64,000 nucleotides of DNA. Source: a virus. Below the pieces are notes generated by a model. That model was not told the DNA's origin. It was given only the letters and a program-made list of their open reading frames with translations, and made no database searches. A program made the position numbers and the translations under genes. The stretch spans positions 91,283 to 155,282 of the IMG/VR virus record IMGVR_UViG_3300037294_000405; one strand, written 5' to 3'. Each line of letters starts with the position of its first letter. Within the stretch, counting starts at the first letter, position 1. Shown here in pieces: positions 1,848 to 40,571 of the stretch.

Positions 1848-2597
1848 ATGGCAAACGGTAAATACATAAACATAAATTACCCCAATATATACATATATGC
1901 TTTGGTTTCAGAAGAAGACCAAAAAAACATTAAATATATTGGAGTAACTTCTAAAACACCTTCAAATCGATTAAGTAATCATATTTATGAAGCAAAAAAA
2001 ACACCTAATAAAACTGATAAAACAAAATGGATTACATCTGTAAATTATAAGTTAAAACAAATAATTTTAGATATTGTTGATTTTGAAACAGCATATTTTT
2101 GGGAACAATATTGGATATCACAATTTAAAACATGGGGTTTTGTTTTAGTAAATTCAAATAATGGTGGTGGTGGTTTAGGTAAAAGAAGCATTGAATTTTC
2201 AGCTTGGTTAAGTAATAGGAATAAAGGTAATAAATATAATTTAGGTAAAACACATTCTGAAGATACTAAATTAAAAATGAGTAATAAAAAACTTGGTAAA
2301 CCATCACCTAGAAAAGGTATTGAAGTGTTAGAAAAAACCAAAGAAAAACAATCTAAAGCTAAAATAGGTAGTGTTGGTAATGCAACTGGTTTTAAACATA
2401 CAGAAGAAACTAAAAATAAGAAAAGAAAAAAAGTTTTACAAATAAGTATTAATGGTCAAATAATAAATGAATTTACATCAGTATCTGATGTCTCAAATTA
2501 TTTTTCTGTAAATATTTCTACTATATCAAAAAGATTAGATAAAAATAAAGAATATAAAGGTTTTATATTCAAAACTAAAATAGAAAACAATGGCTAA
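1848..2597 (+). CDS. GIY-YIG homing endonuclease (NUMOD3/NUMOD1) fused to the original first 12 codons of the gp25 gene
   Basis: YIYAL...YIGVT, WEQYWI, NSNNGG; NUMOD3-like GKTHSEDTK and FKHTEETK. N-terminus MANGKYININYP matches MANGRFININYP of the next gene. Confidence 0.85.
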   Translation: MANGKYININYPNIYIYALVSEEDQKNIKYIGVTSKTPSNRLSNHIYEAKKTPNKTDKTKWITSVNYKLKQIILDIVDFETAYFWEQYWISQFKTWGFVLVNSNNGGGGLGKRSIEFSAWLSNRNKGNKYNLGKTHSEDTKLKMSNKKLGKPSPRKGIEVLEKTKEKQSKAKIGSVGNATGFKHTEETKNKKRKKVLQISINGQIINEFTSVSDVSNYFSVNISTISKRLDKNKEYKGFIFKTKIENNG

Positions 2598-2976
2598 TGG
2601 TCGCTTTATAAACATAAATTACCCCTTTAAGGATAGTAACAAAGGTTTTTTCTTAGATTTGAATGATGAAGATAGTCAAGCGATAAAAGCCGACCTTCTA
2701 CATATAATATTAACTAGAAAAGGTCAAAGACTTTATAAACCAGACTTTGGTACTGATTTATTAAAATTTATCTTTGAACCACAAGATGGAATGACGTTAA
2801 ATGCCGTTAAAGAAGAAATTAAATCAGTAGTAAAACTTTATTTACCAAAATTACAATTAGATGAAATTTTAGTTGAAGAAGCTACCGAAAGCGAATACGC
2901 TGCTGTGTTCACTTTAAAATATACAATAACAGATGCTGTTTTTACAACATCAGACATAGTAGTAGTAAAACTATAA
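2590..2976 (+). CDS. Baseplate wedge subunit, gp25/GPW family
   Basis: IKADLLHIILTRKGQRLYKPDFGTDL..FIFEP is the gp25 signature; 128 aa. Confidence 0.9.
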   Translation: MANGRFININYPFKDSNKGFFLDLNDEDSQAIKADLLHIILTRKGQRLYKPDFGTDLLKFIFEPQDGMTLNAVKEEIKSVVKLYLPKLQLDEILVEEATESEYAAVFTLKYTITDAVFTTSDIVVVKL

Positions 2977-2983
2977 ATAAATT

Positions 2984-4801: not shown

Positions 4802-4863
4802 TAGGGTTTCCTTATTAGTGTGTTATAACTATATTTGTTAATAACAAAATAAAAACAAATAAA

Positions 4864-5214: not shown

Positions 5215-5221
5215 TTAAAAT

Positions 5222-8200
5222 ATGCCTAACAACACTGTTAGAATTAGGACTACACCTAATGGTACCGATAAATATTTAAAAGTAAAACTAGACCAAGAGT
5301 TTGACTTTATTGAGGTTCTTTCTCTAAAGATTTCCCAAGAAGAAGCGTATAGAAATTTTTGTTCTGATTACGGTGTGATTACTGGTAGAGTAATAATTAA
5401 CAGTGGTTTTGGTGTCCCAAATGCTAGGGTTAGCGTTTTCATACCTATTGATGGTATTGATATAAATGACCCAAATATTAAAGGGTTATATCCTTATGAG
5501 ATTATCACGGATAAAGATAGTGATGGTATTAGGTATAATGTACTACCTAGAACTTCTGAAACAGATAATAATTGTTTTACACCAATTGGTACATTTCCAA
5601 ATAAAAGAGAAGTATTAGATAATCCAGAAATGTTGGGTGTTTATTGTAAATATTATAAATTTACAACAACAACAAATCATGCTGGTGATTTTATGGTTTT
5701 TGGAGTACCAGTTGGTACATATACTCTACATGTTGATGCAGATATTTCCGACATAGGTATTGCGTCTCAAAGACCTTACGATAGCATTAGTCAAGGAACA
5801 CCGTTGAAATTTTTCGATTCACCAACAAAATTTAAGGGTGATACTAATTTGGATAAATTAATCCAAGTAAAATCATCTAATATTGGCGTAAATGTACAAC
5901 CTTTTTGGGGTGATATTGATGCGTGTGAAATTGGCATAACTAGGGTGGATATTGATTTAAACTACTCAATAAACCCATCTGCAATATTTATGGGTAGTGT
6001 ATTTGGTGACCAAGATAAAAATAGCGTTAATAAAAATTGTCAACCTAGAAAAGATTTAGGTAACCTTTGCGAACAAGTTGCAAATGAAGGCACTATTGAA
6101 ATGATTAGAGAAACACTTGATGGTACTATTGAAAGTTTTGATGTTGAGGGTGGAAGAGTTATTGACGAAAACGGTGCTTGGGCTTATCAAATTCCAATGA
6201 ATTTAGATTATATGGTTACTGATGAATTTGGTGCTTTGATATTATCTGATGACCCAAATAAAGGTATACCAACTAGAGCTAGTGTTCGATTTAAAATTGG
6301 TATGGACCAAACAGGTGGTGAAGGTAGACTTAGAACTAGAGCTAAATACTTAGTTCCAAACAACCCAAATAATCAAAACGAAATTGATTATGAATTTGGT
6401 GAAAAAACTAAAAAAAGTAGTTTTAGGGATTTATATTGGAATAAAATTTATTCAGTGAGTAATTTCATTTCTAGATTCCAACAGATAACACCATTTAATT
6501 CTGGTGGTTCACGCACTAGAAACATGATGGGTATTAAAGATGTTGATGCCTGTGCTGGTGATAAAACACCGTTTCCTTTTAATAGGGTAGGGAGTCAAAC
6601 ATCACCTATTTTTTTTATTATTTGTTTGATTATTAAAATCATAGGTTTTTTGATTTATGTAATGAATGCACTTATTATACCTTTAATTAATTTGGTTTTA
6701 AAAGTTGTAAATCTTTTAATTAAAGCATGGAATTCTTTGATGAAACCTTTATGTGAAGCTAGTAAAAAAACAATATTAGGTGTTAAAATTTTTGGTTTTT
6801 TAGGTTTTACTTGTAAATTAATTATTGACCCAATTAAATACATACCTTGTATTTTTATTAAATGCCCAACAGATGATAATCCATCTACTTTTGCCCCTGG
6901 GTGTAAAAAAGGTGGTTTAGACGGTGGTGAGGCTTTTGATTCTTTAGTTGACCAAGGTAACACACCAAAATACTATGATGGTGATAGTTTTGGTCATGGC
7001 GGTTTTGGTGATTTATGTGGTTTGGATGATTGTATAGCTTTTCAAATGGCGCAAAAATTAAACCTTTTTGAGTTTGATTTTTATAATGATTGGATAAATG
7101 GTTCATTATATACTTTTTTATTAAAATACAAAATTAGACGTAAAAACTCAGAAAAATTCTGCGAATATGATTGCGGTGATTTTAAAAACTCTACAGATAG
7201 TACAACTGTTGATGGAAACAAAAATGGTGTACCAGATAATGATTGTAGGACTAGTCATTTATTAGATACGTGTTTTAAAGGTGATAGCGAGGACCAACAA
7301 TATTCAAGTAGAAATGTTTTACTTAGAGAAGGTTTAATCAAAAAGAAAAACGATGAGTTCTTTTATGCTGCATCAACACATAACGCTAGTTTTAAGTTAT
7401 TCGCTACAGATATTATTAATTTAGGTGCGGTGTTTAATTGCGACTGGCAAGGCGTACCAAAAGTGCAAGAATATTTAATACCTACAACATATAAAATAGC
7501 ACCAGCTATTCAAGAAATTGCAGCGGATAACACAACAGTGTTAACTACTGGGCAATGTGATATTGATGGAAACACACTTGGTTTGTTTTTTAGTATAAAT
7601 TGTTTAGGGTTACATGTAAATACTAGGCAATGTATGAACCTTAGACATTTATGTGAGTTTGGTGTTGAAATTGACGAATATAGGGGTGTTGGTAATGAAA
7701 CAGATGGTGTGATTGGGTTAAGGGACTTAGATGCTGACGATGCTGACAGACCAAAATGGTTTAGAGATGTTTTCTTAGGGTTAAATTCAACAGTTAATTC
7801 ATGGAATTTACAATTACCTTATACCAGTAATTTTAATTTAGGTGATGCTGGTATATATGATTTTACTAGTCCAGTTCAAAATGGACAGGATTATGTTAAT
7901 TTTAGAAATTATTCGATGGGTAACGGGTCTGTTGGTGAAAATAGTTTTGGTCAACCAAAACACTCATATTATTTTTACTTTGGGATACTTCCTGGGAAAA
8001 GTGGGTTAGATGTTATGAACCAAAGATTTTTTACCGCTTGCGCAACAAAAACTGATTTGGAATTTGTGATTCAAACGTCTACAACACCAACTACAACTAA
8101 TACCACAACAAACGGTACGGTAACATTCACCTTTATAGGCGGTGATGCACCATTTACCGCTACAACTAGTGGGCCTAATGGTTATACTAACGTAACAATC

Positions 8201-9535
8201 GTTGGTCAAAATAACACACAACCAACTGGAACTTTAACTAACCTACCAATTGGTATTTATACAATAACTGGTAACGATAACTTTGGTTCGCCCGTAACGC
8301 AAACATTTATAATTTCTGGACCACCACCATTATCGGTTGATGCTTTAGTTAGTCAAGACTGCACAACAGCCGCTGCTTCTAATGGTGAAATAACAATCTC
8401 GTCAATTATTGGTGGTGTTGGTAGTGTTTATACTTATACTCTTTATAATAGTAATGGTGGTGTTGCTAGTGGTCCGCTTAATATCACTTCTGTACCACAT
8501 GTTATACAAGGTCTGGCTGTGGACACTAGTTTAAACACAACTTTTCCTTTATTTACTGGGCATGGTTATACAATGACGGTAACCGATGGTTTTGAAACGG
8601 TGTATTTAGTTAATTTAGTTTTAAATGGTGCAACACCAATTACTATAACACCTACTGTTACACAAATATTATGTTATGGTCAAAATACGGGTATTATAGA
8701 TATAGATATTAATGGTGGTACACCAACATATTCAGTGAATACAACATCACCTAACGGTTACGTTGGTGGAGGTTTAAATTTGACTAATTTATCTGCTGAC
8801 ACATACACTACAGAAGTGGTTGACGCTATGGGTACGCAATCTTTTTCGACTAATGTATTAACGTATTTGAATCCATTTATGGAAATAGAACCAGCTTCAC
8901 AACAAGTTTTAGAAAAACAGTGTGACCCAAATAATTACCATATTAAGTTATTTGTTACCAGCCCTTATACTGCTGGTTCAAGTGTTTATTTAGATTATGC
9001 TAAAGATTCAGAAGAAGACCCATCTGGAAACCCTATTTGGTACCCATTAGTTTTAAATAATTATATTAATTCTACAACACCATTTGAAATTGTTTTACCT
9101 AGTACTACTATTACCCAGTCGATTATTTTTAGAATGACTAATGCTGCTAAAACATGTTTTAGTGAAGAAATAGAAATATTGTTAAACGAAATTAAACTAC
9201 CACCAAACTTGTTAAGTATTAACACTACAGGTGTTAACACACCTATACAATTAATAGGGGCAAATTTAGTTAAGTTTAAGTTTAATGTTAGTCATTTATT
9301 GTTAGGGCAAACAATAAGAGCACCTTATACTGTAAGTTATTCAGTTAAAGGGATTAATTCACTAGGTATGTTGGTTATAAACCCATCAACATTACCAGTA
9401 ATAAATACAAATCAGCAAGAAATAATTGGAAACGTACCACAACCATTTGGCCAACCAGCAACAACAGTGATTGTTACGATAAGTATAACCGACAATGTAG
9501 GTTGCGTTTCAAATACTATTAATATTTCTACATAA
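5222..9535 (+). CDS. Large Cys-rich virion structural protein with C-terminal SprB-like beta repeats
   Basis: 1437 aa ORF in the baseplate block. Carboxypeptidase-regulatory-like GDFMVFGVPVGTYTLHVD; SprB-like C..NTG.I.I.I.GGTP.Y and NL..GxYT repeats; one hydrophobic segment. Confidence 0.65.
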   Translation: MPNNTVRIRTTPNGTDKYLKVKLDQEFDFIEVLSLKISQEEAYRNFCSDYGVITGRVIINSGFGVPNARVSVFIPIDGIDINDPNIKGLYPYEIITDKDSDGIRYNVLPRTSETDNNCFTPIGTFPNKREVLDNPEMLGVYCKYYKFTTTTNHAGDFMVFGVPVGTYTLHVDADISDIGIASQRPYDSISQGTPLKFFDSPTKFKGDTNLDKLIQVKSSNIGVNVQPFWGDIDACEIGITRVDIDLNYSINPSAIFMGSVFGDQDKNSVNKNCQPRKDLGNLCEQVANEGTIEMIRETLDGTIESFDVEGGRVIDENGAWAYQIPMNLDYMVTDEFGALILSDDPNKGIPTRASVRFKIGMDQTGGEGRLRTRAKYLVPNNPNNQNEIDYEFGEKTKKSSFRDLYWNKIYSVSNFISRFQQITPFNSGGSRTRNMMGIKDVDACAGDKTPFPFNRVGSQTSPIFFIICLIIKIIGFLIYVMNALIIPLINLVLKVVNLLIKAWNSLMKPLCEASKKTILGVKIFGFLGFTCKLIIDPIKYIPCIFIKCPTDDNPSTFAPGCKKGGLDGGEAFDSLVDQGNTPKYYDGDSFGHGGFGDLCGLDDCIAFQMAQKLNLFEFDFYNDWINGSLYTFLLKYKIRRKNSEKFCEYDCGDFKNSTDSTTVDGNKNGVPDNDCRTSHLLDTCFKGDSEDQQYSSRNVLLREGLIKKKNDEFFYAASTHNASFKLFATDIINLGAVFNCDWQGVPKVQEYLIPTTYKIAPAIQEIAADNTTVLTTGQCDIDGNTLGLFFSINCLGLHVNTRQCMNLRHLCEFGVEIDEYRGVGNETDGVIGLRDLDADDADRPKWFRDVFLGLNSTVNSWNLQLPYTSNFNLGDAGIYDFTSPVQNGQDYVNFRNYSMGNGSVGENSFGQPKHSYYFYFGILPGKSGLDVMNQRFFTACATKTDLEFVIQTSTTPTTTNTTTNGTVTFTFIGGDAPFTATTSGPNGYTNVTIVGQNNTQPTGTLTNLPIGIYTITGNDNFGSPVTQTFIISGPPPLSVDALVSQDCTTAAASNGEITISSIIGGVGSVYTYTLYNSNGGVASGPLNITSVPHVIQGLAVDTSLNTTFPLFTGHGYTMTVTDGFETVYLVNLVLNGATPITITPTVTQILCYGQNTGIIDIDINGGTPTYSVNTTSPNGYVGGGLNLTNLSADTYTTEVVDAMGTQSFSTNVLTYLNPFMEIEPASQQVLEKQCDPNNYHIKLFVTSPYTAGSSVYLDYAKDSEEDPSGNPIWYPLVLNNYINSTTPFEIVLPSTTITQSIIFRMTNAAKTCFSEEIEILLNEIKLPPNLLSINTTGVNTPIQLIGANLVKFKFNVSHLLLGQTIRAPYTVSYSVKGINSLGMLVINPSTLPVINTNQQEIIGNVPQPFGQPATTVIVTISITDNVGCVSNTINIST

Positions 9536-9560
9536 TGAAGATAAAAAATATAAATAAATA

Positions 9561-11372
9561 ATGGGTACTGATAGAATAATAAAAAGACTTGGCGTTGAAA
9601 AATCTAAATTAGCTACAAATACTGACGCTTTTTTAAAAATTAGTATTGAAGGTAATGAAAGGTTATTACCCACCAATGAAATTGATAGAATAGTCAATAT
9701 TGCTGATAGGTTTAATGTCGAAAGACAACGAAGTAAATATTATCGATTAATCGGTACAATAAACCCTTTAATTAGTAATCCTTTATTTAATTTGAATGAC
9801 CCATTATTATTAGATAAAAATACATTGGCTGGGTTTAATAATTTAGATTTTTTAGATTGGTCGTACCCAAAAGACGGTGATGTTAATGATGATGGTGATT
9901 TTACATATGCTAAATCGATTAAGTATTATTTAAAAGAAAGAGATGGTTGGTTTGGTTATTTTGACCCAGACATTACAAAATCAAGTTTATGTGGTTATTA
10001 TGATATGGAACCAAAAAGAGAACGTTTTTCTTTTTTACCAGATATCTCACCATACCATTCTCCCTCTAGTCAACCAGTTAAAAATTGGGAGTTAGTGGTA
10101 ACCTACCCAAAGTTAAGTGATAAAACACATAAATTGGTTAATGGTGGTTTATTGATAGTCGAAACGCAAACAACAGTAGTTTCAACTAGAGCAATGACAG
10201 CTATTGGTATGCCTTGTTTACATAACCTATCGATTGGTGATACGGTTAGGATAAGTGGGACTAATGGTTATAATGGTGACCACGAAGTGGTTACTTTAGG
10301 TTTAAGTAACGGTGATTACAAAGATTATTATTTTGTGATTGATGTTCCAAATACTGGGACGATAAATAACCTATCTAGAATTAAAAAACTAGTAAATGGT
10401 GTTGAGTCAGAATATTATTTTAGAAAATTTAGAAAAATTAAAACTAGAGCTACAGCTGTTATTGAAACTGATGATTATGAAACATACCAAGTTGGGTTCA
10501 GTGAAAACTTTTTTAACGACCAAATAACTCAATATGTTTTTAATGAAGATATTGATGTTAGTGATTTAACAGATAATTTAGGTAGACCACTTAGTGAAAT
10601 TTATTTGACAATAATTAAAACTGACAGTAATAATTTATTTGGTAAGGTCTCTTCTGGTATTGAAACACCTTTTATTAATCGTTTAAACACTAGTAATATA
10701 AACCCTTATTTGTTAGATATTCCAGCGATTAATAAAATACACAACGGTGCCCCATTGCCTTTTCAATCACATACACCATTAGAAAACAACGTTAAAATTA
10801 CTGACAACAATGGATTACCAAGTAATATTGATTATTATGGTGATTTAGTTGAATACAATATTGAAACATTAAATGAAATAATTTTAGCAACTGTTTCTCA
10901 TAGATTTAACACAATAAGCAGAGAAACACCAGCAACGATTAATTATGTTTTATCAACACCAACAGACGTTAATGGTCAACCAACATATGCTCAGACCAAT
11001 TTGGGGCCTAGACAAGAAGGGTACCATTATCAAGCACATCACCAAATTAAAATTAGAGAATTTTCTAACTACGTTGAAGAAGGTGATGAATTTACTGAAG
11101 GTATGCCAGATTACGTTGTAAATATGGGTGATGGTAGGTATTTATGGAGAGACTTATTAGATATTGGTTTCAATCAAACAGATGAAAGACCATTGAACTA
11201 CCCATTTTTAAATGGTAGTCATTATATGTACCAAAATCATTGTTTTTATTTAAGAAGACAAGACCAATTTTCTTTATGGAACCTCTACTATAGTAAGTTC
11301 CCAGCTGACCCAGTTGGTGAAAGAATAACAGATAATTTTACAGTAAATACAGCCAATCCAGATGTTTGTTAA
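9561..11372 (+). CDS. Putative virion structural protein
   Basis: 603 aa ORF with the same codon bias, within the structural operon. Confidence 0.65.
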   Translation: MGTDRIIKRLGVEKSKLATNTDAFLKISIEGNERLLPTNEIDRIVNIADRFNVERQRSKYYRLIGTINPLISNPLFNLNDPLLLDKNTLAGFNNLDFLDWSYPKDGDVNDDGDFTYAKSIKYYLKERDGWFGYFDPDITKSSLCGYYDMEPKRERFSFLPDISPYHSPSSQPVKNWELVVTYPKLSDKTHKLVNGGLLIVETQTTVVSTRAMTAIGMPCLHNLSIGDTVRISGTNGYNGDHEVVTLGLSNGDYKDYYFVIDVPNTGTINNLSRIKKLVNGVESEYYFRKFRKIKTRATAVIETDDYETYQVGFSENFFNDQITQYVFNEDIDVSDLTDNLGRPLSEIYLTIIKTDSNNLFGKVSSGIETPFINRLNTSNINPYLLDIPAINKIHNGAPLPFQSHTPLENNVKITDNNGLPSNIDYYGDLVEYNIETLNEIILATVSHRFNTISRETPATINYVLSTPTDVNGQPTYAQTNLGPRQEGYHYQAHHQIKIREFSNYVEEGDEFTEGMPDYVVNMGDGRYLWRDLLDIGFNQTDERPLNYPFLNGSHYMYQNHCFYLRRQDQFSLWNLYYSKFPADPVGERITDNFTVNTANPDVC

Positions 11373-14165: not shown

Positions 14166-14173
14166 CATAAAAA

Positions 14174-24899: not shown

Positions 24900-24900
24900 T

Positions 24901-26148: not shown

Positions 26149-26211
26149 ATGATTAAAGAACCAGAATTTTTATTGGCGTTAGATGTATCAACATCAAAAT
26201 TATTTAATTAA
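26149..26211 (+). pseudogene. Stranded original N-terminus of the RuvC-like gene
   Basis: MIKEPEFLLALDVSTSKLFN* versus KEPEFLLSLDVSTS at 27149+. Confidence 0.85.
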
Positions 26212-26270: not shown

Positions 26271-26420
26271 ATGGCAAGACCAAAATTAAAAGAAGAAGAT
26301 AAAAAAATTAGACTAGGTGTAACAATATCTAGAGAACTATATAAAAAAATTGATTCGGAAACAAACAATAAATCTGAATTTATTGAGAAACTATTAACTA
26401 AATATTTTTATGAAAAGTAA
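26271..26420 (+). CDS. Small ribbon-helix-helix-like DNA-binding protein (49 aa; absent from ORF track)
   Basis: MARPKLKEEDKKIRLGVTISRELYKKIDSETNNKSEFIEKLL...; ATATTTATA at 26247; overlaps the endonuclease start. Confidence 0.7.
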   Translation: MARPKLKEEDKKIRLGVTISRELYKKIDSETNNKSEFIEKLLTKYFYEK

Positions 26421-27159
26421 TGGTATTTATAGGATAGTTAATAATATAAACGGTAAAGTTTATATTGGAAGTACTGGAAGCAAAGGTGGTTTTAAAAAAA
26501 GATGGTCATATCATTTAACTGATTTGAAACAAAATAAACACCATTCCAGACATTTACAAAGAGCTTGGAATAAATATGGTGAAAATTCATTTGTATTTGG
26601 AATAATAGAAATAATTGAAAATTTTACTAAAGAAACGTTATTAATTAGAGAACAATATTATTTAGATTTATATAAATCATATGATGTTAATTTAGGTTAT
26701 AATATATGTAAGAATGCTGGTAGTTCTTTAGGTGTTAAAAAAACACCAGAACAAATAAAACAAATGTCTGAGTTAAGAAAAGGAAAACCAATACCATGGT
26801 TGAATAATGGTCAACCAAGAAGTAAAGAGCATATAGAAAATTTAAAAAATGCCTGTATTGGTAAAATATCTGAGAAATTAGATAAGACATATGAAGAAAT
26901 TTACGGTGAGGAAAAAGCTATAAAATTAAAGAAAAAATTAAGTGAATCACATATTGGGGTTAATACTGGTGAAAAACACCCGAAAGCAAAATTAGTACAA
27001 CAATTTGATATGGATAATAATTTAATTAACGAATTCAGTTGTTCAATTACAGCTAGCGAAGTATTAAATATACCAGCAAAAAGTATAAGAATGTGTTGTG
27101 GTGGGTTTGCAAAAACAGCATATGGTTTTAAATGGAAATATAAAAATTATGAAAAATAA
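26410..27159 (+). CDS. GIY-YIG homing endonuclease with NUMOD1 tail
   Basis: GIYRI...YIGST, HLQRAWNKYG, REQYY, GYNI; C-terminal TAYGFKWKY. Confidence 0.92.
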   Translation: MKSNGIYRIVNNINGKVYIGSTGSKGGFKKRWSYHLTDLKQNKHHSRHLQRAWNKYGENSFVFGIIEIIENFTKETLLIREQYYLDLYKSYDVNLGYNICKNAGSSLGVKKTPEQIKQMSELRKGKPIPWLNNGQPRSKEHIENLKNACIGKISEKLDKTYEEIYGEEKAIKLKKKLSESHIGVNTGEKHPKAKLVQQFDMDNNLINEFSCSITASEVLNIPAKSIRMCCGGFAKTAYGFKWKYKNYEK

Positions 27160-27811
27160 AATAGAAAAAGAACCAGAATTTCTTTTAAGTCTGGATGTAT
27201 CAACTTCAACCATTGGTATTGCATTATTTGAAGATATGGGTAACAAGGGTGAATTAAAACTTTTACACCATGTATCACCAAAAGTTAAACCAAAACCAGA
27301 AACAAAAACGGAAGAATTGTTTAGGAAAATTGAAATATTTGAAAATGAATTTCTTTCACACTATAGTGATTTTGGTATTACTAGGGTTGTTATCGAAGAA
27401 CCACTACTTCAGTCAAACAATGTTTACACGATTGCCACCTTATTAAGGTTTAATGGTATGATTTCAAAATCTATTTACGATACTTTAGGTATTGTACCAG
27501 AGTTCATCTCTTCTTATGATGCACGTAAATACGCATTTCCAGAGCTTATGGACGTTAGAAAAGCAAAAAAGGATGGAACACCTTTAGCTGATAAACAAAT
27601 AGCTAAAAACGCTCCTGTGTTGTTTGGGGGTTATCCATTTAATGTTGACAAGAAAATGGTGATTTTCGAAAATGTATGTGATTTAGAACCGCAAATAAAA
27701 TGGATGTTAGATAAAAAAAATAAACTAAAAAAAGAAAATTTCGACATGAGTGATGCCTATGCTTGTGGGTTAGCTTGGTTTAACCTTAGAAAGATAAAAA
27801 GAGATAATTAA
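27149..27811 (+). CDS. RuvC-like Holliday junction resolvase
   Basis: LDVSTSTIG (catalytic Asp), VIEEP, DMSDAY: RNase H-fold D/E/D/D set. Likely start is the ATG at 27149. Confidence 0.8.
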   Translation: MKNKIEKEPEFLLSLDVSTSTIGIALFEDMGNKGELKLLHHVSPKVKPKPETKTEELFRKIEIFENEFLSHYSDFGITRVVIEEPLLQSNNVYTIATLLRFNGMISKSIYDTLGIVPEFISSYDARKYAFPELMDVRKAKKDGTPLADKQIAKNAPVLFGGYPFNVDKKMVIFENVCDLEPQIKWMLDKKNKLKKENFDMSDAYACGLAWFNLRKIKRDN

Positions 27812-27825
27812 TTATCTCTTTTTAT
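27794..27825. repeat. Perfect 32-bp palindrome centred on the shared TTAA stops of two convergent genes
   Basis: ataaaaagagataatt|aattatctctttttat. Confidence 0.9.
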
Positions 27826-28554
27826 TACTCTATTTATATAACCACATAATGGTTTAAGGTTAGTATAGTGGTTAAGTTTAATTAATTCGTCTTCACACAT
27901 TGCTTTTGATTGTGGTATGATATGGTCAATATCCCAACCATAATTTTTTGTCCCATTATATATTCCTCTATTATCCCAAGTCATCCATGATTCCCAAAGT
28001 GATTCAATATGTTGTTTAAAATATTCATAAGAACATCCTAATATTTCATGTGACCTAGATTTTTTAGTAAACCCATTCTTTTTTAATGCGCTGTTAATCA
28101 TTCGATTCATATAACATCTTAAATTAAAAACTGGGTCGATTTTTTTTCTTTCTTTTGTTTTTTCATTTCGAATCTGTTTATATTGTTCGTTATACTCTTT
28201 GTAGTATTCTGGATTTTTATTATTCCATTCTTTTTTATAATTCGGGTTATTAATAACCCATTCTTTTTGCTTTTCTTTTATGTTAAGAATATTTTCCTCT
28301 CTATATTTTTTTGATGTCTCTTTTATATTTTCTATGTTATTATAATAATAACTTTTACTTTTTTGTTTAATTATTTCGCTGTTATCCTTATAATATTCTT
28401 TAATTGTTTCGCTGTTATCCTTATAATATTCTTTAGAATAATTCGAATTACATATTTTACATATTGTTCTTAATCCATCTTTAGTAATTTTATGTTTACC
28501 AAATTCTGTTATTGGTTTTAATACTTCACATTTTTTACATTTTTTAATTTCCAT
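27808..28554 (-). CDS. HNH homing endonuclease (minus strand; track label '+' is wrong)
   Basis: The + strand reads CAT at 28552-28554. CxxC...CxxC zinc ribbon, WDIDHIIP, HYTNLKPL..N. Confidence 0.88.
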   Translation of the reverse strand: MEIKKCKKCEVLKPITEFGKHKITKDGLRTICKICNSNYSKEYYKDNSETIKEYYKDNSEIIKQKSKSYYYNNIENIKETSKKYREENILNIKEKQKEWVINNPNYKKEWNNKNPEYYKEYNEQYKQIRNEKTKERKKIDPVFNLRCYMNRMINSALKKNGFTKKSRSHEILGCSYEYFKQHIESLWESWMTWDNRGIYNGTKNYGWDIDHIIPQSKAMCEDELIKLNHYTNLKPLCGYINRVIKRDN

Positions 28555-28616
28555 AATCTTGTTTTATTATAAATATATTGAAATTACAAAAAAACATATT
28601 TTTTTAAGTTTGTGAT

Positions 28617-28792
28617 ACAAGAAATATGTTTTATGGGAAAAAGTTGCTGAATTAGAACCACAAGTTACTTGGTTTTATGATAAAAACAACAAATTAAAAA
28701 AGGAAACATTCGATACATCTGACGCATACGTTTGTGCTATAGGTTATATGAATAAAATAGGTCTTTGGCCTAGGCAACCAAATCAATTCTAA
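28617..28792 (+). pseudogene. Stranded original C-terminus of the RuvC-like gene
   Basis: KKYVLWEKVAELEPQVTWFYDKNNKLKKETFDTSDAYVCAIG... aligns without gaps to KKMVIFENVCDLEPQIKWMLDKKNKLKKENFDMSDAYACGL. No start codon at the homology boundary. Confidence 0.88.
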
Positions 28793-28798
28793 AATTAT

Positions 28799-28829
28799 TT
28801 GGAAAAACAGTTTTAATTTCGTACCTTTG
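28799..28829 (+). promoter_or_regulatory. Bacteroidota-type housekeeping promoter TTG-N20-TAnnTTTG (representative copy)
   Basis: Same spacing recurs at 30196, 36829, 54471, 55073, 58856, 60079, 61754 and 63525. Confidence 0.85.
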
Positions 28830-28833
28830 TCGA

Positions 28834-30173: not shown

Positions 30174-30240
30174 GGTATTCTTTTAATATAAATACTTGCA
30201 ATATAGAATAAAATTTCGTACCTTTGTAATAAAAGTAAAT

Positions 30241-31023
30241 ATGAGTAAAGCTAAATTATGGGAAGGTCCAGTATTTCTAGAACCAATAGAACATAAATAC
30301 CATCACAGGGTAACTGGTAAGACTTATAAGTCAGTTACGACAACCCTTTCATCGATTGAACCTCACTTTGATTCAGAGGCGGTTTCAGCTGCTATCGTAA
30401 ACCAATTAGATAACGTTAAACAAGAACGTTATATCGGTTTAACACAACAACAAATACTTGATTTTTGGCAAATGCTTAATGATGAAGCGAATGTATATGG
30501 TACTAAGGTCCATGACATCGTTGAGCGTTATTTATTAGCTAACAAATGGTATTTTCCAACAGATGATGAAGAAGGTGAGTTTGAACAATGCGTTATAGAT
30601 GGTTTTAATGCGTTAAAAATTGATGAGGGTGTGGCAATGTGGCCAGAACGTATATTGTTTTCTGAACAATACGAGTTAGCTGGTATGTCTGACCTTATTA
30701 TAGATATTGATGAAAAATACTTTGATGTGTGGGATTGGAAAACAAATAGAGAGTTTAACTTCTTTAACCAATACGGTAATGAAACGTTGTTTAAACCTTT
30801 TGACCACTTACAAGCGTGTCAATGGTCAATTTATACGCTTCAGTTAAGTGTTTATACATATATGTATGAATTAGAGTTTACTGGGCGTAAATGTAGACAA
30901 ATATGTATTGGGTATTGGGATAAAGAGAAAAAAACTTTTGAAAAAATTCAAATTATGTATTTGAAACATGAAGCTAAAAAGCTTATTGAGATGCATCACT
31001 ATAACTTAATGAAAAACTTATAA
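30241..31023 (+). CDS. PD-(D/E)XK nuclease (RecB/Cas4-like exonuclease)
   Basis: SVTT, GTKVH, E..L, AGMSDL, DWKT, Y..QLSVY. The track's TTG start overlaps the promoter, so the ATG at 30241 is preferred. Confidence 0.82.
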   Translation: MSKAKLWEGPVFLEPIEHKYHHRVTGKTYKSVTTTLSSIEPHFDSEAVSAAIVNQLDNVKQERYIGLTQQQILDFWQMLNDEANVYGTKVHDIVERYLLANKWYFPTDDEEGEFEQCVIDGFNALKIDEGVAMWPERILFSEQYELAGMSDLIIDIDEKYFDVWDWKTNREFNFFNQYGNETLFKPFDHLQACQWSIYTLQLSVYTYMYELEFTGRKCRQICIGYWDKEKKTFEKIQIMYLKHEAKKLIEMHHYNLMKNL

Positions 31024-31024
31024 T

Positions 31025-32407: not shown

Positions 32408-32432
32408 TACATTAAAAAATAAAAAAAAATAT

Positions 32433-33484: not shown

Positions 33485-33911
33485 AGATGAAATTTGGGAT
33501 TATTGTCGTTTGAACAATGTAACCAATATCGATGAGTTTACTATAAAATTAGTTAAGCAAGGTTTTACGGTTGAGAAATTTGGTGCCACACCATCCGTTG
33601 CTGAAAAAATAGTGAAAAAGATAGTAGAAAAGATGGTTGAAGTACCTGTTGAAGTTGAAAAAGTGGTTGAAAAAGTGGTTGAAAAAATTGTTGAGGTAAT
33701 GGTTGAAAAAGAAGTTTATATTACTGATGATTCACAAACAAAAAAAATGGTTGATAAAATTGCTAAATTACAAAAAGAATCAACAACTAATAATAGTGTA
33801 CAAAGCAAATTAAAAGAACAAATATCAAAATTAACTGAACAGTTAAAAACAGTTAATAAAGAATTAGAAAAAGAAAAAAATAAAAGTAAAACTGACATTT
33901 ATGGCGAATAA
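33462..33911 (+). CDS. Hypothetical coiled-coil protein with VEK repeats
   Basis: 149 aa with (I/V)VEK repeats. Confidence 0.65.
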   Translation: MEIPKKIKDEIWDYCRLNNVTNIDEFTIKLVKQGFTVEKFGATPSVAEKIVKKIVEKMVEVPVEVEKVVEKVVEKIVEVMVEKEVYITDDSQTKKMVDKIAKLQKESTTNNSVQSKLKEQISKLTEQLKTVNKELEKEKNKSKTDIYGE

Positions 33912-34494
33912 CACAGATACCGCAGATAACACATTAATATCACCGTACTCCAAGATTAAAGTGTATTGGGATGACCAGCCGCACAACTACAGCAAAGAGG
34001 CTAAAAATAAGATTAGAAACTACATAGCTAACAAGTACGGTGTTCAAAAAAACAATATAACTGTTGTTTATAGACCAGTTAGGTTCAATACCGATGGTGA
34101 TGCCATTGAAATCACTGGTGCTGGTATAGAAAATATCATGGATATTAACTATCAAAGAGCGCTTATGAAAGAGTTAATTACTAGAGATGGTAAGAATATT
34201 GACTTCAACCGTATTGTTGCTTTAGATGACAAGGTAAACGGTGAATTAAATGTTGATTTAACGCAAACAACACATAGGAGCTGGTCAATTAAATGGGTCA
34301 TGATAGATAATTTCTTATCCTTTGGTGAAAGTAATTACGTTCCTTTTAGTAAATTAAAAGGTTTAACTATAGTAAATTCAGTTCCAGCTAATCAAGGTGG
34401 GAAATGTGTTAGGTCTGACACTCAAGTAGTTATATCTTATAATCAAGATGAAATCATTAAAAAACTAGGTTTTTTACCAGATGAATTAAAATAA
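33901..34494 (+). CDS. SbcC/Rad50 (gp46-like) N-terminal fragment ending in a 29-aa split-intein N-fragment
   Basis: IDNFLSFG, GLTIV..PANQGGK (Walker A up to the Lys), then CVRSDTQVVI (intein block A). Confidence 0.88.
   Translation: MANNTDTADNTLISPYSKIKVYWDDQPHNYSKEAKNKIRNYIANKYGVQKNNITVVYRPVRFNTDGDAIEITGAGIENIMDINYQRALMKELITRDGKNIDFNRIVALDDKVNGELNVDLTQTTHRSWSIKWVMIDNFLSFGESNYVPFSKLKGLTIVNSVPANQGGKCVRSDTQVVISYNQDEIIKKLGFLPDELK
34405..34491 (+). other. Atypically short IntN (29 aa)
   Basis: CVRSDTQVVISYNQDEIIKKLGFLPDELK immediately after GGK. Confidence 0.85.
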
Positions 34495-34590
34495 TTTAAC
34501 AAATACTTTACCTTCTTGGTTAATTGGTTATCATGAATTATTAAGGACATTATATGAAATAAGTTTAGAAATTTAAAAATAAAAAAGTAT

Positions 34591-34962
34591 ATGAATAAAG
34601 AAATTACGATAGGTGAATTACATGAAATTTACCAAAAATACGGAGACCTAGATTTTAAAGTTGATACACCATACGGTTTTAAAGATATTGAATGGTGTGG
34701 TATTACGGAAGAAAATGCTGATGTTTATAGATGTGAACTTGAAAATGGTATGTTTGTTGAAGGTGCTGATTATCATCGTTTAAAGAAAACGGATGGTGAG
34801 TTTGTTGTACTTAAAGAAATTAAAGTTGGTGAAATAATCCAAACTAATAATGGTGATAGTGCAGTTGCTAGTATTAAGTTATTAGAAGAAAAAGATACGT
34901 TATATGATATTCAAGTAGCGGAAGTTCACCAATATTATACAAATGGTATTGTATCACACAAT
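34591..34962 (+). other. Long IntC (124 aa)
   Basis: ITIGEL, VDTPYGF, GADYH (block B-like), LYDIQV..HQYYTNGIVSHN|T. Confidence 0.9.
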
Positions 34963-36828
34963 ACAACTTTAACTATTGATGCTATTAAATTTTTGTTACA
35001 TGGTAACACAACAAAAACAGATACAAACGAACAAATCTTTAACACCTACAGTAATAAGAACGAACTAGTTGTAAGGGGTATGATTGAAATCGAGGGTGAA
35101 GAAACTATCATTGAACGTAAAATGAGACGTACAGCTAAAAAAGATGGTGGTTGGACTGTTACAAATAGAGTTAACTACTACAGAATACTTCCAGATGGTG
35201 AAGAAGAAGCGTTAAATGAGGAAGATGCTACTCAAACAACTAAAAGTCTTAAAGAAACTATTGGTAGTGAAAAAGATTTTGAGATGTTAGTGTTGGCAAC
35301 GGAAAAAAACTTAGATGAACTTATTGGTTTGACCACAACTGAATCTGGAAAAGTTCTAACTAGACTTATTGGTTTAGAAATACTAGAACTTAAAGAAAAA
35401 GCGGCTAGAGAAATGTATAATGAATTTGCTAGGAAGAAAAAATCTAATGAATATGATGTTATTACTCTAGGCGAAGAAATAGACGACCATAACGATAAAA
35501 TTATTTTGGGTGAAGAATTAGAGGTTGAGCTAAAACAAAAATTGGAGGATACTAAATCTGAAATTCAAACGCTTACTGATAGTAAAGAGTCATTAATCAA
35601 TAGCAAAGAAAAAATTGATGTTACCATTTCAGAACTTAACCCAGAAAAATTAGAAAGCGAAGTTGCTAAATTAATCGAGAAAGGTGTCGAATTTAAAGAA
35701 AATGTTGCTGGTTTAAAAGTTAAGATAATTGCAATTGGTGAAATTGAATTTGATGAAGATAAACATTTAGAATTATCTAAAGATTTTAATACAAACACTA
35801 CGAACAAAGCGTTAAAAGAAGCTGAGATGACAAGACTTAAAAAAGTTGTGTCTGGTTTGATTTCTGGTGGTATTTGTCAATCGTGTAATAGAAAATTAGA
35901 TGATGTAGACAACTCACTACACATAACTAAACATGAATTGGAAATAGAAAAGTTAAGGAAGGAACTTTTGGGTGTTGATGAAACGTTAAAATCATTATCT
36001 GGTAATTTGACTATTTTAAATGAAAACAAATTGTTAATCGATAATAAAAATAAACTAGAGTTAAATGTTGATAGAATAGAAGTTGAAATGGGGTCATTGA
36101 GAAATGATGTAACCGCAAAGAAAAATGACCTTAAAAAATATCAGCTTAATTTGCATGCTATTGAGTTTAATAAAAAAATAGAGATTAAAGTTATCGACAT
36201 TAAAACAAAATTGGCAGTATGCGAATATTCAAAAGACCAAACAATTGTAAATATACAAAGGGTTCAAACAGATATACAAACTAATAAAACTAGTGTTGTT
36301 ACTAAAACAAAATTAATCGAAACAATAAAAAAAGAAGAAGAAGTTGATAAGATTTTCAAGGTTTATATTGAGTTGGTTGGTAAGAAAGGTATTAGTAAAT
36401 TAGTTTTGCGTTCTGTTTTACCTATTATTAATTCTGAAGCACAAAGATTGTTAGAAGATGTTGTAGATTTTGATATTGAGATATTTATGAATGATAAGAA
36501 TGATGTTCAATTTTTAATGGTTAAAGATGGTGTTTCTAAATTGTTAAAATCTGGTTCTGGTTTAGAAAAAACAGCAGCTAGTTTAGCACTTAGAGCGGTG
36601 TTAGGTAAGTTATCTACTTTACCTATGCCTAACTTTATTACTTTTGACGAAGTATTGGGTAAAGTGGCACCAGAAAATTTAGAAAAATTGAAAAATCTCT
36701 TTGATAAAATAAAAGATATGTATGAAATTGTTTTCTTTATTACACACAATGACTTGGTTAAAGATTGGTCTACAAATAACATTACCGTTATTAAAGAAAA
36801 TAATATCTCTAGTGTTGCTATAAAATAG
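34591..36828 (+). CDS. SbcC/Rad50 ATPase C-terminal part preceded by IntC
   Basis: Extein starts TTL (completing GGK-TT). Coiled coil with CQSC zinc hook, SGLE signature, FDEV Walker B, ITH. Confidence 0.92.
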   Translation: MNKEITIGELHEIYQKYGDLDFKVDTPYGFKDIEWCGITEENADVYRCELENGMFVEGADYHRLKKTDGEFVVLKEIKVGEIIQTNNGDSAVASIKLLEEKDTLYDIQVAEVHQYYTNGIVSHNTTLTIDAIKFLLHGNTTKTDTNEQIFNTYSNKNELVVRGMIEIEGEETIIERKMRRTAKKDGGWTVTNRVNYYRILPDGEEEALNEEDATQTTKSLKETIGSEKDFEMLVLATEKNLDELIGLTTTESGKVLTRLIGLEILELKEKAAREMYNEFARKKKSNEYDVITLGEEIDDHNDKIILGEELEVELKQKLEDTKSEIQTLTDSKESLINSKEKIDVTISELNPEKLESEVAKLIEKGVEFKENVAGLKVKIIAIGEIEFDEDKHLELSKDFNTNTTNKALKEAEMTRLKKVVSGLISGGICQSCNRKLDDVDNSLHITKHELEIEKLRKELLGVDETLKSLSGNLTILNENKLLIDNKNKLELNVDRIEVEMGSLRNDVTAKKNDLKKYQLNLHAIEFNKKIEIKVIDIKTKLAVCEYSKDQTIVNIQRVQTDIQTNKTSVVTKTKLIETIKKEEEVDKIFKVYIELVGKKGISKLVLRSVLPIINSEAQRLLEDVVDFDIEIFMNDKNDVQFLMVKDGVSKLLKSGSGLEKTAASLALRAVLGKLSTLPMPNFITFDEVLGKVAPENLEKLKNLFDKIKDMYEIVFFITHNDLVKDWSTNNITVIKENNISSVAIK

Positions 36829-36875
36829 TTGCAATTGTTAGTTAATTGTAGTATCTTTGTATAAAATAACGATAT

Positions 36876-37406: not shown

Positions 37407-37493
37407 TAAGCAAAAACCCTTGACTTTATTGGGGTTTTTAGTATATTTGTAATGTTAAAACATAACAAAATAAGATTAAAATGAAACAGTTTA

Positions 37494-38324: not shown

Positions 38325-38326
38325 AG

Positions 38327-38351
38327 AAAAGGGTTTTGGAACCCTTTTTTT
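38327..38351 (+). terminator. Intrinsic terminator
   Basis: aaaagggtt-ttgg-aaccc followed by T7. Confidence 0.75.
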
Positions 38352-38384
38352 GTAATTGGTATATTTATAATAAAACAAAAAAGC

Positions 38385-38462
38385 ATGAAAATTAAGTTTA
38401 GATATATAATGTTATTTTTAGCGTTATCAGTTGCTGGCTGTGCTGCATACTTTTCGGTTTAA
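38385..38462 (+). pseudogene. Stranded original N-terminus of the membrane protein gene at 39411
   Basis: MKIKFRYIMLFLALSVAGCAAYFSV* versus MNFKYIMLITAIIIAITSAGFSI. Confidence 0.78.
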
Positions 38463-38505
38463 AATAATTTAAGTAATTTTTTGTGGTTGCTATATATTTA
38501 TTAAT

Positions 38506-39414
38506 GTGGGAAAGAAAAAAACTAAAGAAGAATTCATTAATGATTCTAAAATAATTTATGGTGATAAATACGATTATTCATTAGTTGAATATGTAAATAA
38601 TAAAACTAAAATTAAAATAATTTGCCCAATACATGGGGTATTTGAAAAAACACCAGATAAACATTTGTATGGTAAAAGTGGTTGTTTAAAATGTGATAAT
38701 TACCATACAAAAAATATTAATAATCACAAAAGAACAGTTGTTGATAGGATGAATGTTAAACATAATAATTTTTATGATTATTCATTAGTTGAATATGTAA
38801 ATAATAAAACTAAAATTAAAATAATTTGCCCAATACATGGGGTATTTGAACAAACACCAAATAATCATTTACAAGGTAATGGTTGTTTAAAATGTGGTGG
38901 TACTGAAAAGATGTCGACACAAGATTTTATAAATAAAGCTAAATTAGTTCATGGTGATAAATATGATTATTCATTAGTTAATTATGTTAATTATAAAAAT
39001 AAAGTAAAAATAATTTGTTCACTTCACGGAGTATTTAATCAATCATTTATTAAACATTGTAATCGAAAAAATGGTTGTCCTATTTGTAAAGAATCAAAAG
39101 GTGAAAAACAGATAAGGGTTTTTTTAGAAAATAATAAAATTAATTTTACACCACAATATAGATTTAATAATTGTATAAATAAATACCCATTACCATTTGA
39201 TTTTTATTTACCAGATTATAATATGTGTATTGAATTTAATGGTGAACAACACTATAAAAGCTTTAAATTTTTTGGTGGTAGTGAAAAATTTAAACAACAA
39301 TTAATTAATGATAATATTAAATTAAAGTTTTGTGAAAATAACAAAATACAATTGTTAATTATAAAGTATGACGAAAACGTTATTAATAAATTAAAAAAAA
39401 AATATAAAAAATGA
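38506..39414 (+). CDS. Endonuclease with DUF723-like Zn-binding repeats and C-terminal Vsr/PD-(D/E)XK-like domain
   Basis: Three YDYS..Y....K..IIC..HG.F...H..GC.KC repeats; SKGE, FDFY, IEFNGEQH. Confidence 0.82.
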   Translation: MGKKKTKEEFINDSKIIYGDKYDYSLVEYVNNKTKIKIICPIHGVFEKTPDKHLYGKSGCLKCDNYHTKNINNHKRTVVDRMNVKHNNFYDYSLVEYVNNKTKIKIICPIHGVFEQTPNNHLQGNGCLKCGGTEKMSTQDFINKAKLVHGDKYDYSLVNYVNYKNKVKIICSLHGVFNQSFIKHCNRKNGCPICKESKGEKQIRVFLENNKINFTPQYRFNNCINKYPLPFDFYLPDYNMCIEFNGEQHYKSFKFFGGSEKFKQQLINDNIKLKFCENNKIQLLIIKYDENVINKLKKKYKK

Positions 39415-40571
39415 ATTTTAAATATATTATGTTAATTACAGCTATTATAATAGCTATTACTAGTGCTGGGTTTTCAATTTTTGGGCTTAGTCAATTATTT
39501 GCGGGTGCTAGTACTGCTGTTATCGTAATGACATCGATACTAGAATTGGGTAAGATTGTTACCACGACAGCGCTACACACATATTGGGATAAACTAGCCA
39601 AAGGCCTTAGAATATATTTAACTATTAGTGTTGGGGTTCTTATGATAATCACATCTGCTGGTATCTACGGTTTTCTATCAAATGCTTACCAAAAAACAGC
39701 TAATAAATTAGAAATACATGAAGGTGAACTAGGTGTATTAGACGGTAAAAAAATAGTATTTGAAAAAAGCCTAGTCGATAACCAAAAAATTATTGATGGT
39801 AAAACAAAACGTTTAGACCAATTATCGAATCTTAGAACTAACCAAGAGTCACGTTTGGATGGTTCAACGTCAAACAGGGCTAGAAATAGCGTTAGAAGTG
39901 ATATTGCGACTGCTAATTCAGAGATTCAAAAATTAACGCTAGATATTGACGAATTAAACGCTAAAAATTCTGTGTTGTCAGATTCTATTAGTTCGTATAA
40001 CGTTAAAGGCTTAGAAAAAAAGGCAAATAGTGATGTCGCTGGTGAAGTTGGTCCATTGAAGTATATATCTGAGCTTACAGGTGTCCCTATGTCAAACGTA
40101 GTTAACTATATGATATTATTGTTGATATTTGTGTTTGACCCATTGGCTGTTGCTTTAATCCTTATAACAAATAAAGTGTTTATGTTAGAAACTGGTCAAA
40201 CTGTTGAAGAAGAAACAAAAGTTGTTAAAAATGAAAAAGTTATCGGTAAAAAATGGTTAGATTATCTTAAAAATAACTTAAAAAAAACTGAAATTAAAAA
40301 AGACACAACAAAAGACATTTTAGAAACCCTTGTTGAAAACTTACAAGGTGAGGGAGTAAAAGAAGAAATTGAAACAAAAACCATTAAAAAAGAACCAGTT
40401 GTTGCCAAAGGTAAAATAGAATTAGAAGATATCAAAGAAATAAAAGAAGGAAACAGAGGGTTTTCTGTTAAAGTTCCAGAACCAAAAACTACTAATATGG
40501 TGGAAAGAATTGGTTCTAATAAGATAGTTAAAGATGGTGATAACAATAAAGTTATTTTTAGACGTGATTAA
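39411..40571 (+). CDS. Multi-pass membrane protein with coiled coil
   Basis: Three N-terminal TM segments, GFLS motif, coiled coil, EVGPLKY, IFVFDPLAV. Confidence 0.75.
   Translation: MNFKYIMLITAIIIAITSAGFSIFGLSQLFAGASTAVIVMTSILELGKIVTTTALHTYWDKLAKGLRIYLTISVGVLMIITSAGIYGFLSNAYQKTANKLEIHEGELGVLDGKKIVFEKSLVDNQKIIDGKTKRLDQLSNLRTNQESRLDGSTSNRARNSVRSDIATANSEIQKLTLDIDELNAKNSVLSDSISSYNVKGLEKKANSDVAGEVGPLKYISELTGVPMSNVVNYMILLLIFVFDPLAVALILITNKVFMLETGQTVEEETKVVKNEKVIGKKWLDYLKNNLKKTEIKKDTTKDILETLVENLQGEGVKEEIETKTIKKEPVVAKGKIELEDIKEIKEGNRGFSVKVPEPKTTNMVERIGSNKIVKDGDNNKVIFRRD

Follow-up and report, generated by a model that had tools for sequence, protein, structure and literature searches.

Homing endonuclease genes beside duplicated gene ends in an uncultured jumbo phage: probable intronless homing with replacement of the gene terminus

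A stretch of 64,000 nucleotides (hereafter, the window), corresponding to bases 91283–155282 of a 155-kb viral metagenome contig rated as 44% complete (IMG/VR record IMGVR_UViG_3300037294_000405), was found to contain duplicated gene ends at four sites: the start of a gp25-like baseplate gene, the 5′ end and the 3′ end of a RuvC-like resolvase gene, and the start of a membrane-protein gene. When the reading frames were taken from stop codon to stop codon, each duplicate pair flanked an open reading frame (ORF) of a homing endonuclease family, with one copy joined to the intact gene and the other left as a stub beyond the nuclease. These cassettes are most probably free-standing homing endonuclease genes that spread by intronless homing and carry with them a replacement end for the gene that they enter.

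The alleles of the window were compared with 181 related loci from viral metagenome contigs (80 around RuvC, 80 around gp25 and 21 around the membrane gene), which are designated here by an L and a number. Since related contigs reach 360–380 kb, the source was considered to be an uncultured jumbo phage. No close cultured relative was found in a protein search of a phage collection, the baseplate protein being less than 30% identical to any entry, and a DNA search of the same collection with the RuvC region returned no near relative, just short matches of 72–75%. The same cassette structures recurred in independent metagenome assemblies, and an assembly artefact was therefore rejected.

The duplicates were detected by a six-frame self-comparison of the whole window run without low-complexity masking or composition correction; with both applied, three of the four were missed. 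They were the top same-strand repeats in separate frames at a spacing of 300–4000 nt (E values of 4.5e-14, 1e-5, 1.3e-4 and 3e-3), and the sole comparable repeat was a domain repeat within a single ORF (19930–21030). This internal repeat (20229–20804) covers about 38 residues in units about 430 nt apart, and its minus-strand frames (E 7e-11) scored higher than the plus-strand ones. The two weakest E values alone would fail a multiple-test correction, and these two duplicates were accepted because each stub matches the native gene end of nuclease-free relatives at the orthologous position. At all four sites the host gene was full length in comparison with its relatives, and occupied, empty and remnant alleles were found among those relatives. 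Hence, the initial annotation, which had described a diverged duplicate beyond the nuclease at four gene ends and intact host genes, was borne out on both points. It had also predicted that an empty allele should equal the stranded terminus plus the gene body. Among the relatives fetched, this held at the gp25, RuvC 5′ and membrane-gene sites, where nuclease-free relatives have the sequence of the displaced stub at the gene end in question and none carries the in-gene copy; the RuvC 3′ site gave a divided answer, described below.

At the gp25 site, the stub (1848–1883, plus strand) consists of the native gp25 start codon and codons 1–12, now serving as the first 12 codons of the nuclease ORF, with the native 5′ leader just upstream. 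The ORF (1848–2597, plus strand) encodes a GIY-YIG homing endonuclease with a NUMOD3 motif (Pfam GIY-YIG, 29.1 bits; NUMOD3, 30.2 bits; PHROG 314, “homing endonuclease”, E 7e-12). It is followed by the intact gp25-like baseplate wedge gene (2590–2976, plus strand; Pfam GPW_gp25), which aligns over residues 1–128 to its relatives and whose start overlaps the nuclease stop. Codons 1–12 of this gene (2590–2625) are a recoded replacement terminus sharing 10 of 12 residues with the stub. The stub itself is identical at 33 of 36 nt to the gp25 start of the closest relative with an empty site (L083), and the leader upstream is near-identical. The Pfam GIY-YIG match begins at residue 14 and there is no alternative start codon in the ORF; in every occupied lineage the nuclease lacks a start of its own and borrows from native gp25 the leader, the start codon and codons 1–12.

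A clear association between the cassette and the recoding was observed at this site. All of the cassette-free gp25 alleles, including the closest relatives (95% identical), begin with stub-type codons. The recoded start was present at 13 of 13 loci that carry the nuclease, or just its last 20–60 codons, and at none of the 65 loci without it. Decay intermediates were observed in L102, L109 and L149, in which only the 3′ end of the nuclease gene and the recoded gp25 start remain. The recoded start is common to cassette alleles whose gp25 bodies are just 63–80% identical, and two synonymous changes in its codons 2–3 create the stop codon of the nuclease. Between lineages the cassette is 70–80% identical, with a peak of 92–93% at the end of the nuclease gene and the recoded start, a weaker signal of movement than that obtained at the RuvC 5′ end. 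Inspection of the native gp25 start by eye revealed no CNNNG motif of the I-TevI kind.

At the RuvC 5′ end the stub is an orphan ORF of 20 codons (26149–26211, plus strand) that repeats the RuvC N-terminus at 27149–27214 (E 1e-5); it keeps native codons up to position 26196, followed by four foreign codons and a stop. Beyond it lie a small ORF of 49 aa (26271–26420, plus strand), the first gene of the cassette, and a GIY-YIG homing endonuclease gene (26410–27159, plus strand; Pfam GIY-YIG, 35.7 bits; PHROG 314, E 1e-32), the stop of which is overlapped by the start of the intact RuvC-like resolvase gene (27149–27811, plus strand; PHROG 159, RuvC-like). The resolvase gene aligns over its full length to 80 relatives and carries both a replacement 5′ end and, from 27767, a replacement 3′ tail. 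The small ORF had been annotated as a ribbon-helix-helix (RHH) protein, an identity that neither Pfam nor PHROG supported, so that it is RHH-like by residue pattern only.

The left boundary of this cassette is the same in three lineages (the window, L006 and L049), directly 3′ of the codons of the catalytic Asp motif, and the stub of L006 is near-identical to the native RuvC start of its empty relative L005. Cassette DNA was more conserved here than its flanks: the left ~600 nt of the cassette are 85–96% identical between the window and L006/L049, whereas the flanking genes are 60–75% identical, and the small ORF is 90–96% identical in two lineages whose flanking genes are ~60% identical. Conservation within the GIY-YIG gene was uneven in the same comparison, the catalytic half being 85–96% identical in nucleotides and the DNA-binding half 40–70%. 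The closest relative, L003, has a deletion from inside the stub into the GIY-YIG gene that removed the small ORF and the catalytic half. Since it retains the last 68 nuclease codons at 100% identity, L003 is a decayed descendant at this site.

The 3′ end of the RuvC gene is flanked by an HNH endonuclease gene in antisense (27808–28554, minus strand; Pfam HNH, 20 bits; PHROG 1035, 2340 and 7091, endonuclease families, E down to 8e-15). A hairpin with a perfect 15-bp stem (27793–27826; dG −17.9 kcal/mol, z −5.8; none of 200 shuffles folded equally well) spans the stop codons of these two convergent genes and looks like a bidirectional terminator. The stub beyond the HNH gene (28616–28792, plus strand) repeats RuvC residues 168–212 with 58% identity (E 7.8e-14 and 4.5e-14); its 58 codons are open without a start codon, and the native stop was destroyed by a 1-nt deletion. 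From 28736 to the primase start the sequence is ~95% identical to L003, and the stub is 84–92% identical to the C-terminus of many relatives without the HNH gene.

Among 58 distinct HNH-less relatives, the RuvC tail was closer to the stub in 44 and to the in-gene copy in 12. As all of the distant relatives have the stub-type tail, this type is ancestral. The HNH gene was found at the RuvC 3′ end in no other locus of the relatives examined. Nevertheless, L006 carries the in-gene-type tail, the hairpin and 36 nt of the 3′ end of the HNH gene (its last 11 codons); this remnant indicated that L006 is a loss derivative and that the in-gene tail is tied to the HNH cassette. Furthermore, HNH homologues in relatives adjoin the 3′ ends of the primase or the PD-(D/E)XK gene, there too with duplicated 3′ ends.

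At the fourth site, the stub is an orphan ORF of 25 codons and a stop (38385–38462, plus strand) that repeats the start of the membrane gene; it is 76–92% identical to the N-terminus of empty alleles and lies at the orthologous place. A Zn-finger homing endonuclease gene (38506–39414, plus strand) comes next, and its stop is overlapped by 4 nt, as read directly, by the start of the intact membrane-protein gene (39411–40571, plus strand). The latter aligns from residue 1 to 386 with L163 at 91%, its first ~25 codons being a strongly diverged replacement. All of the 19 empty alleles have the stub-type 25 residues, which run straight into the gene body where the stub stops, and none of them has the in-gene N-terminus. 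The nuclease was found at this site only in the window and in L163/L164, where it is 100% identical.

The identity of the nucleases was also analyzed. Both GIY-YIG domains score above the Pfam cut-off; the HNH motif, at 20 bits, is just below its cut-off of 21.4 and is backed by the PHROG endonuclease families. The Zn-finger nuclease has three DUF723/treble-clef repeats and a C-terminal Vsr/EDxHD-like domain (Pfam DUF723 and DUF4379; PHROG 559, 9084 and 7140, E down to 5e-78). It belongs to a very large family, with at least 8000 database matches, many of them named “very-short-patch-repair endonuclease” by JGI. A phmmer search against PDB sequences gave no match for this protein, nor did Pfam for its C-terminal domain. 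An AlphaFold model made from 30 homologues (pLDDT 89.5) was therefore informative in this case: the best Foldseek match of the C-terminal domain was the catalytic domain of I-Bth0305I (3r3p, TM 0.69 on the target), with a further match to E. coli Vsr (1vsr). On the predicted fold, the original designation as Vsr-like is correct, and the protein is more precisely assigned to the EDxHD-type homing family. The proposal that three nuclease families take part agreed with these searches, since GIY-YIG (twice), HNH and Vsr-like proteins were all recovered by Pfam, PHROG or fold search.

The same arrangement was found at further sites, and at least 10 sites with duplicated gene ends were counted in this phage family. 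This count takes in a further case in the genome of the window itself (46058–46139 versus 47076–47157). The most direct comparisons came from near-isogenic pairs of occupied and empty alleles (L009 versus L008/L010, L005 versus L064 and L154 versus L150), in which the flanks are 98–99.9% identical and the inserts measure 915–1730 bp. In these pairs the stub is identical to the native sequence, and the in-gene copy is recoded at the PD-(D/E)XK 3′ end and the primase 5′ end. L009 differs from L010, with flanks 99.3–99.9% identical, by a 1505-bp insert with an antisense HNH gene; the far copy is the native PD-(D/E)XK 3′ end, and the in-gene copy shows 12 changes in 60 nt that alter just 3 residues.

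In the comparisons of L005 with L064 and of L009 with L008, a reversed cassette of small ORF and GIY-YIG gene occupies the 5′ end of the primase gene. The stub at this site consists of the native leader plus 21–27 codons, and the in-gene recoding extends ~12 nt beyond the stub end. As the residue just past the stub, all five distinct cassette alleles have T, T, A, C or S, and most empty ones have I, V or M. Two insertions are present in L031: the 3′ end of the primase gene holds an HNH gene, and the 5′ end of a gene of 720 aa holds a Zn-finger nuclease gene. The in-gene C-terminus of its primase is atypical at precisely the positions at which the stub is canonical, and the replacement N-terminus of the 720-aa gene matches a natural variant of another lineage.

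These observations can be brought together in a mechanism, which is proposed from sequence comparison. The nuclease gene would originally have been intergenic, as a stub-less cassette still is in some relatives. In a mixed infection, the nuclease would cut the cassette-free allele within the first or last 12–55 codons of a conserved gene, and the break would be repaired off the cassette-bearing genome, so that the nuclease gene and the diverged gene end are copied together. The gene would remain intact, its altered copy presumably being resistant to cutting, and the recipient's own gene end would be stranded, as far as the break, as a dead stub beyond the nuclease. When the recipient genome is diverged, the gene-body side may be repaired by homology and the other side joined without it; such one-sided repair would leave the recipient stub, the cassette and the donor gene end in that order. 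Later the nuclease may decay or be deleted while the replacement end persists. Cutting at the junction, the immunity of the recoded copy, which the initial annotation put as removal of the cleavage site, and the pathway of repair belong to the model. The stub is best read as a scar marking where the recipient was broken, and the recoded end as the form that the gene end has in the donor lineage, on occasion accentuated by selection acting on the target site. At the three 5′-end sites the nuclease stands behind the native leader and the start codon of the restored gene overlaps the nuclease stop, an arrangement that suggests coupled translation.

Several observations weigh against this explanation or restrict it. 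At the RuvC 3′ end, 12 of the 58 HNH-less relatives have the in-gene tail, and a search behind all twelve found an HNH footprint in only one (L006). L003 tracks the in-gene copy to 27766 and then the stub copy (~95% identity) into the primase gene; L003 could accordingly be an empty ancestor or the product of a deletion between the repeats, and the pair alone cannot decide. The stub of the window upstream of this boundary also differs from L003, its closest relative. At the RuvC 5′ end, the in-gene copy across the junction differs by 1 nt from the empty allele L022, and the similarity to empty alleles means that immunity by recoding is not evident at this junction. The gp25 nuclease is about as diverged between lineages (63–71% aa) as the host genes, which is also compatible with long vertical residence and repeated loss. 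Finally, the repeats are exact in two insertions of relatives, measuring 26 bp in L150 and ~110 bp in L157. In both (L150, 5383–7112; L157, 2889–4532) a gene for a 547-aa Zn-finger nuclease lies antisense between gp25 and gpJ within exact direct repeats, and the insertion in L150 looks recent, its flanks being 99.6–99.98% identical to the empty L154. Exact repeats in two young insertions indicated that recoding is not obligatory. Hence, the claim of the initial annotation that the mobile unit is the nuclease plus a recoded terminus was supported by the alleles of the relatives, but recoding is not universal and copies without a stub exist.

The exact repeats could also be accommodated if a local duplication came first, that is, if a tandem copy of the gene end arose in place, the nuclease landed between the copies and these then diverged, the end itself never being mobile; the two insertions show that duplication is possible without recoding. 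This order of events was nevertheless considered very unlikely. In the near-isogenic pairs the backgrounds differ by 0.1–2% while the in-gene copy and the stub differ by ~20%, a distance too large to have arisen in place. The recoded gp25 start spans gp25 bodies 63–80% identical and is absent from every cassette-free allele, the replacement N-terminus in the 720-aa gene of L031 is another lineage's natural variant, and no tandem duplication without a nuclease or its remnant was found among about 180 loci. A somewhat better case, though still an unlikely one, can be made for ordinary intergenic nucleases with accidental repair scars as stubs and a usual co-conversion tract as the “replacement terminus”. 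The reversed cassette of small ORF and GIY-YIG gene lies between RuvC and primase without a stub in L016–19, stubs have been deleted in some lineages without harm, and the degree of recoding resembles ordinary divergence between lineages. The existence of stub-less intergenic copies does make the stub look like an arrival scar and not a required part. Yet this alternative departs from the preferred mechanism mainly in viewpoint, and it leaves unexplained the start codons overlapping nuclease stops at all three 5′ sites, the fact that in all occupied lineages the nuclease is fused to the native start of gp25, and the family-atypical residues close to the junction in cassette alleles.

Hidden splicing, in which an intron or intein that escaped recognition would house the nuclease and the stub would be a real exon or extein, deserves mention since the same phage family does have split inteins (in RNR and probably SbcC) and a full intein (in the PD-(D/E)XK gene of L003). 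It was judged to be extremely improbable. No group I or group II intron was detected at Rfam gathering scores in the whole window, nor at E ≤ 1 in the three cassette regions, and no HINT or intein domain was detected in the four host genes or the nuclease ORFs. The layout of split-intein fractured genes (Dassa et al., 2009; two ORFs, with IntN and IntC at the facing ends and a nuclease between them) is likewise absent at the four sites. Stop codons close the stubs or, in one case, the start codon is missing; the complete second gene end makes splicing needless, and joining the stub to the gene body would duplicate residues. Duplicated ends and stub stop codons are incompatible with an intron or intein with a resident endonuclease. 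The absence of a visible intron or intein, as noted in the initial annotation, was therefore confirmed for the cassettes by the Rfam and HINT searches; the wider picture had to be corrected, since inteins occur elsewhere in the window (a split-intein RNR at 1–1745 and probably SbcC at ~33901–36828). Replacement of the gene terminus by intronless homing remained the preferred explanation.

Regarding these intein-bearing genes, the large subunit of ribonucleotide reductase (RNR) is fractured: the ORF at 591–1745 opens with an intein C-piece of ~33 aa, and a GIY-YIG/NUMOD3 gene (1–585) lies in the gap. Apart from this gene, no other homing-type nuclease was found in the rest of the window. A mid-gene duplication suspected in the RNR gene of L083 was rejected, as it proved to be another split-intein fracture, lying farther on in the gene and absent from the window. 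In the SbcC-like gene at 34591–36828, ~124 N-terminal residues ahead of the SbcC part weakly match intein/HINT models, and the region 33901–36828 is probably a second split-intein gene. A group I intron suspected in the PD-(D/E)XK gene of L003 was also rejected: the gene (8071–9912) gave no Rfam match and contains a full-length LAGLIDADG intein in an ORF of 613 aa, while the copy of the window (30196–31023) is empty. The split position in PD-(D/E)XK is the same in L003, L004, L006, L007 and L080.

The window has a GC content of ~30% and encodes, besides the ribonucleotide reductase, gp25 and gpJ baseplate proteins, the RuvC-like resolvase, a DnaG-type primase, the PD-(D/E)XK nuclease, an SF1 helicase, SbcCD, a sigma-70 factor, an amidase, DnaJ, ClpP, RNase HII and a tmRNA. 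The phage tmRNA is located at 61859–62217 (Rfam RF00023, 68 bits), with ClpP (61021–61743) and DnaJ (58908–59951) nearby. A DUF2828 (TROVE-like) protein at 55141–56742 is spread over two neighbouring ORFs, one matching the N-part and the other the C-part of a single Pfam model, which may reflect a frameshift or a split gene. Additionally, a short motif, GTA-(T/C)-(A/C)-TTTG-(C/T), is conserved 10–40 nt upstream of many starts in the window and the related loci (e.g., before the primase at 28800–28833). It is also present at the cassette edges that face the downstream gene, and may be a phage promoter or leader element.

In a broader sense, replacement of the terminus may be a general and widespread splicing-free route into conserved phage genes, open at both gene ends to nucleases of at least three unrelated families. 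The point of cleavage would be recorded by the stub, and at 5′ ends the nuclease would acquire the expression signals of the host gene; as a side effect, diverged lineages would go on exchanging core-gene ends, with foreign termini outlasting the nuclease. The chances of this wider claim were regarded as even. The model is concrete in that the stub should end at the cut site and the repair homology should lie on one side only, and target sites could be read off the natural pairs of occupied and empty alleles. It would account for small orphan ORFs and lineage-hopping gene termini in phage genomes, and it cautions those who annotate genomes or build trees that a core gene can have a foreign end.

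Homing endonucleases are usually thought to enter essential genes only inside an intron or intein, or else to stay intergenic. Phage examples of the second kind are the seg and mob genes of T4, intron-free GIY-YIG and HNH genes that are present in some and absent from other related phages. Their products are believed to cut close by in alleles without the nuclease, and the genes spread with co-conversion of flanking markers; intronless homing by the free-standing Seg and Mob endonucleases was reportedly described by Belle, Landthaler and Shub in 2002 (as cited in PMC8351571). The cassettes described here are likewise intron-free, include GIY-YIG and HNH genes and are polymorphic between related phages. 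Unlike the intergenic T4 genes, they are inserted inside coding sequence and leave a stub, and we know of no displaced duplicate of a gene end described for seg or mob. Integrating elements also restore the gene that they enter with a spare 3′ end, as in tRNA genes and, for e14 and phage 21, in icd. There too a diverged gene end arrives with the element and displaces the native one, and gene function is preserved, but this is the work of an integrase and att sites in a host chromosome, in contrast to homing-type nucleases without an integrase.

The closest parallel was found in the mORFs of fungal mitochondria, in which a gene body with a foreign C-terminus is followed by an endonuclease ORF and the displaced native C*-terminus (PMC3630166, PMC6279837), as in atp6 of Allomyces macrogynus and atp6, atp9, cox2 and nad3 of Glomus (PMC3630166; also PMC6279837). 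In these, the native copy matches a close relative, the inserted copy is 64–81% identical in DNA with a near-identical protein, and the nuclease is of the LAGLIDADG or GIY-YIG type (PMC3630166). The phage cases at 3′ ends (RuvC in the window; PD-(D/E)XK and primase in relatives) share this layout, with a diverged end joined to the gene body, a nuclease adjoining it and a displaced native end that matches close relatives. They differ in that the host is a phage genome and not an organelle, the HNH genes are antisense and not in phase, the nuclease families include HNH and Vsr/EDxHD-like proteins, and many natural occupied, empty and decayed alleles are available. The mirror form at 5′ ends, where the nuclease takes the native leader or start codon and the restored start overlaps the nuclease stop, is a further difference and is not described for fungi in PMC3630166.

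Free-standing nucleases within essential phage genes that stay functional are also found in nrdA of Aeromonas phage Aeh1, split by mobE (Friedrich et al., 2007, as cited in PMC8351571), and in the “fractured genes” with split inteins, where the Vsr/EDxHD-like nuclease type was first noted (PMC2677866). The window has one such fractured gene (RNR) and probably a second (SbcC). In those systems, however, the gene is in two pieces that act as subunits or are trans-spliced, whereas at the sites described here a single intact ORF is kept by means of a replaced end. A recent survey of phage homing nucleases places them close to or inside essential genes and does not describe duplicated ends (PMC10448857). 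No description of duplicated gene termini beside phage homing endonucleases was found in a literature search of incomplete coverage, which leaves their absence unproven. With respect to the known systems, the phage cassettes are set apart by the 5′-end mirror form, the additional nuclease families and the rich natural series of alleles. In this family of uncultured phages (~360 kb), nucleases of several families appear to make repeated use of a third route into essential genes, one known from fungal mitochondria, and to do so at either end of a gene.

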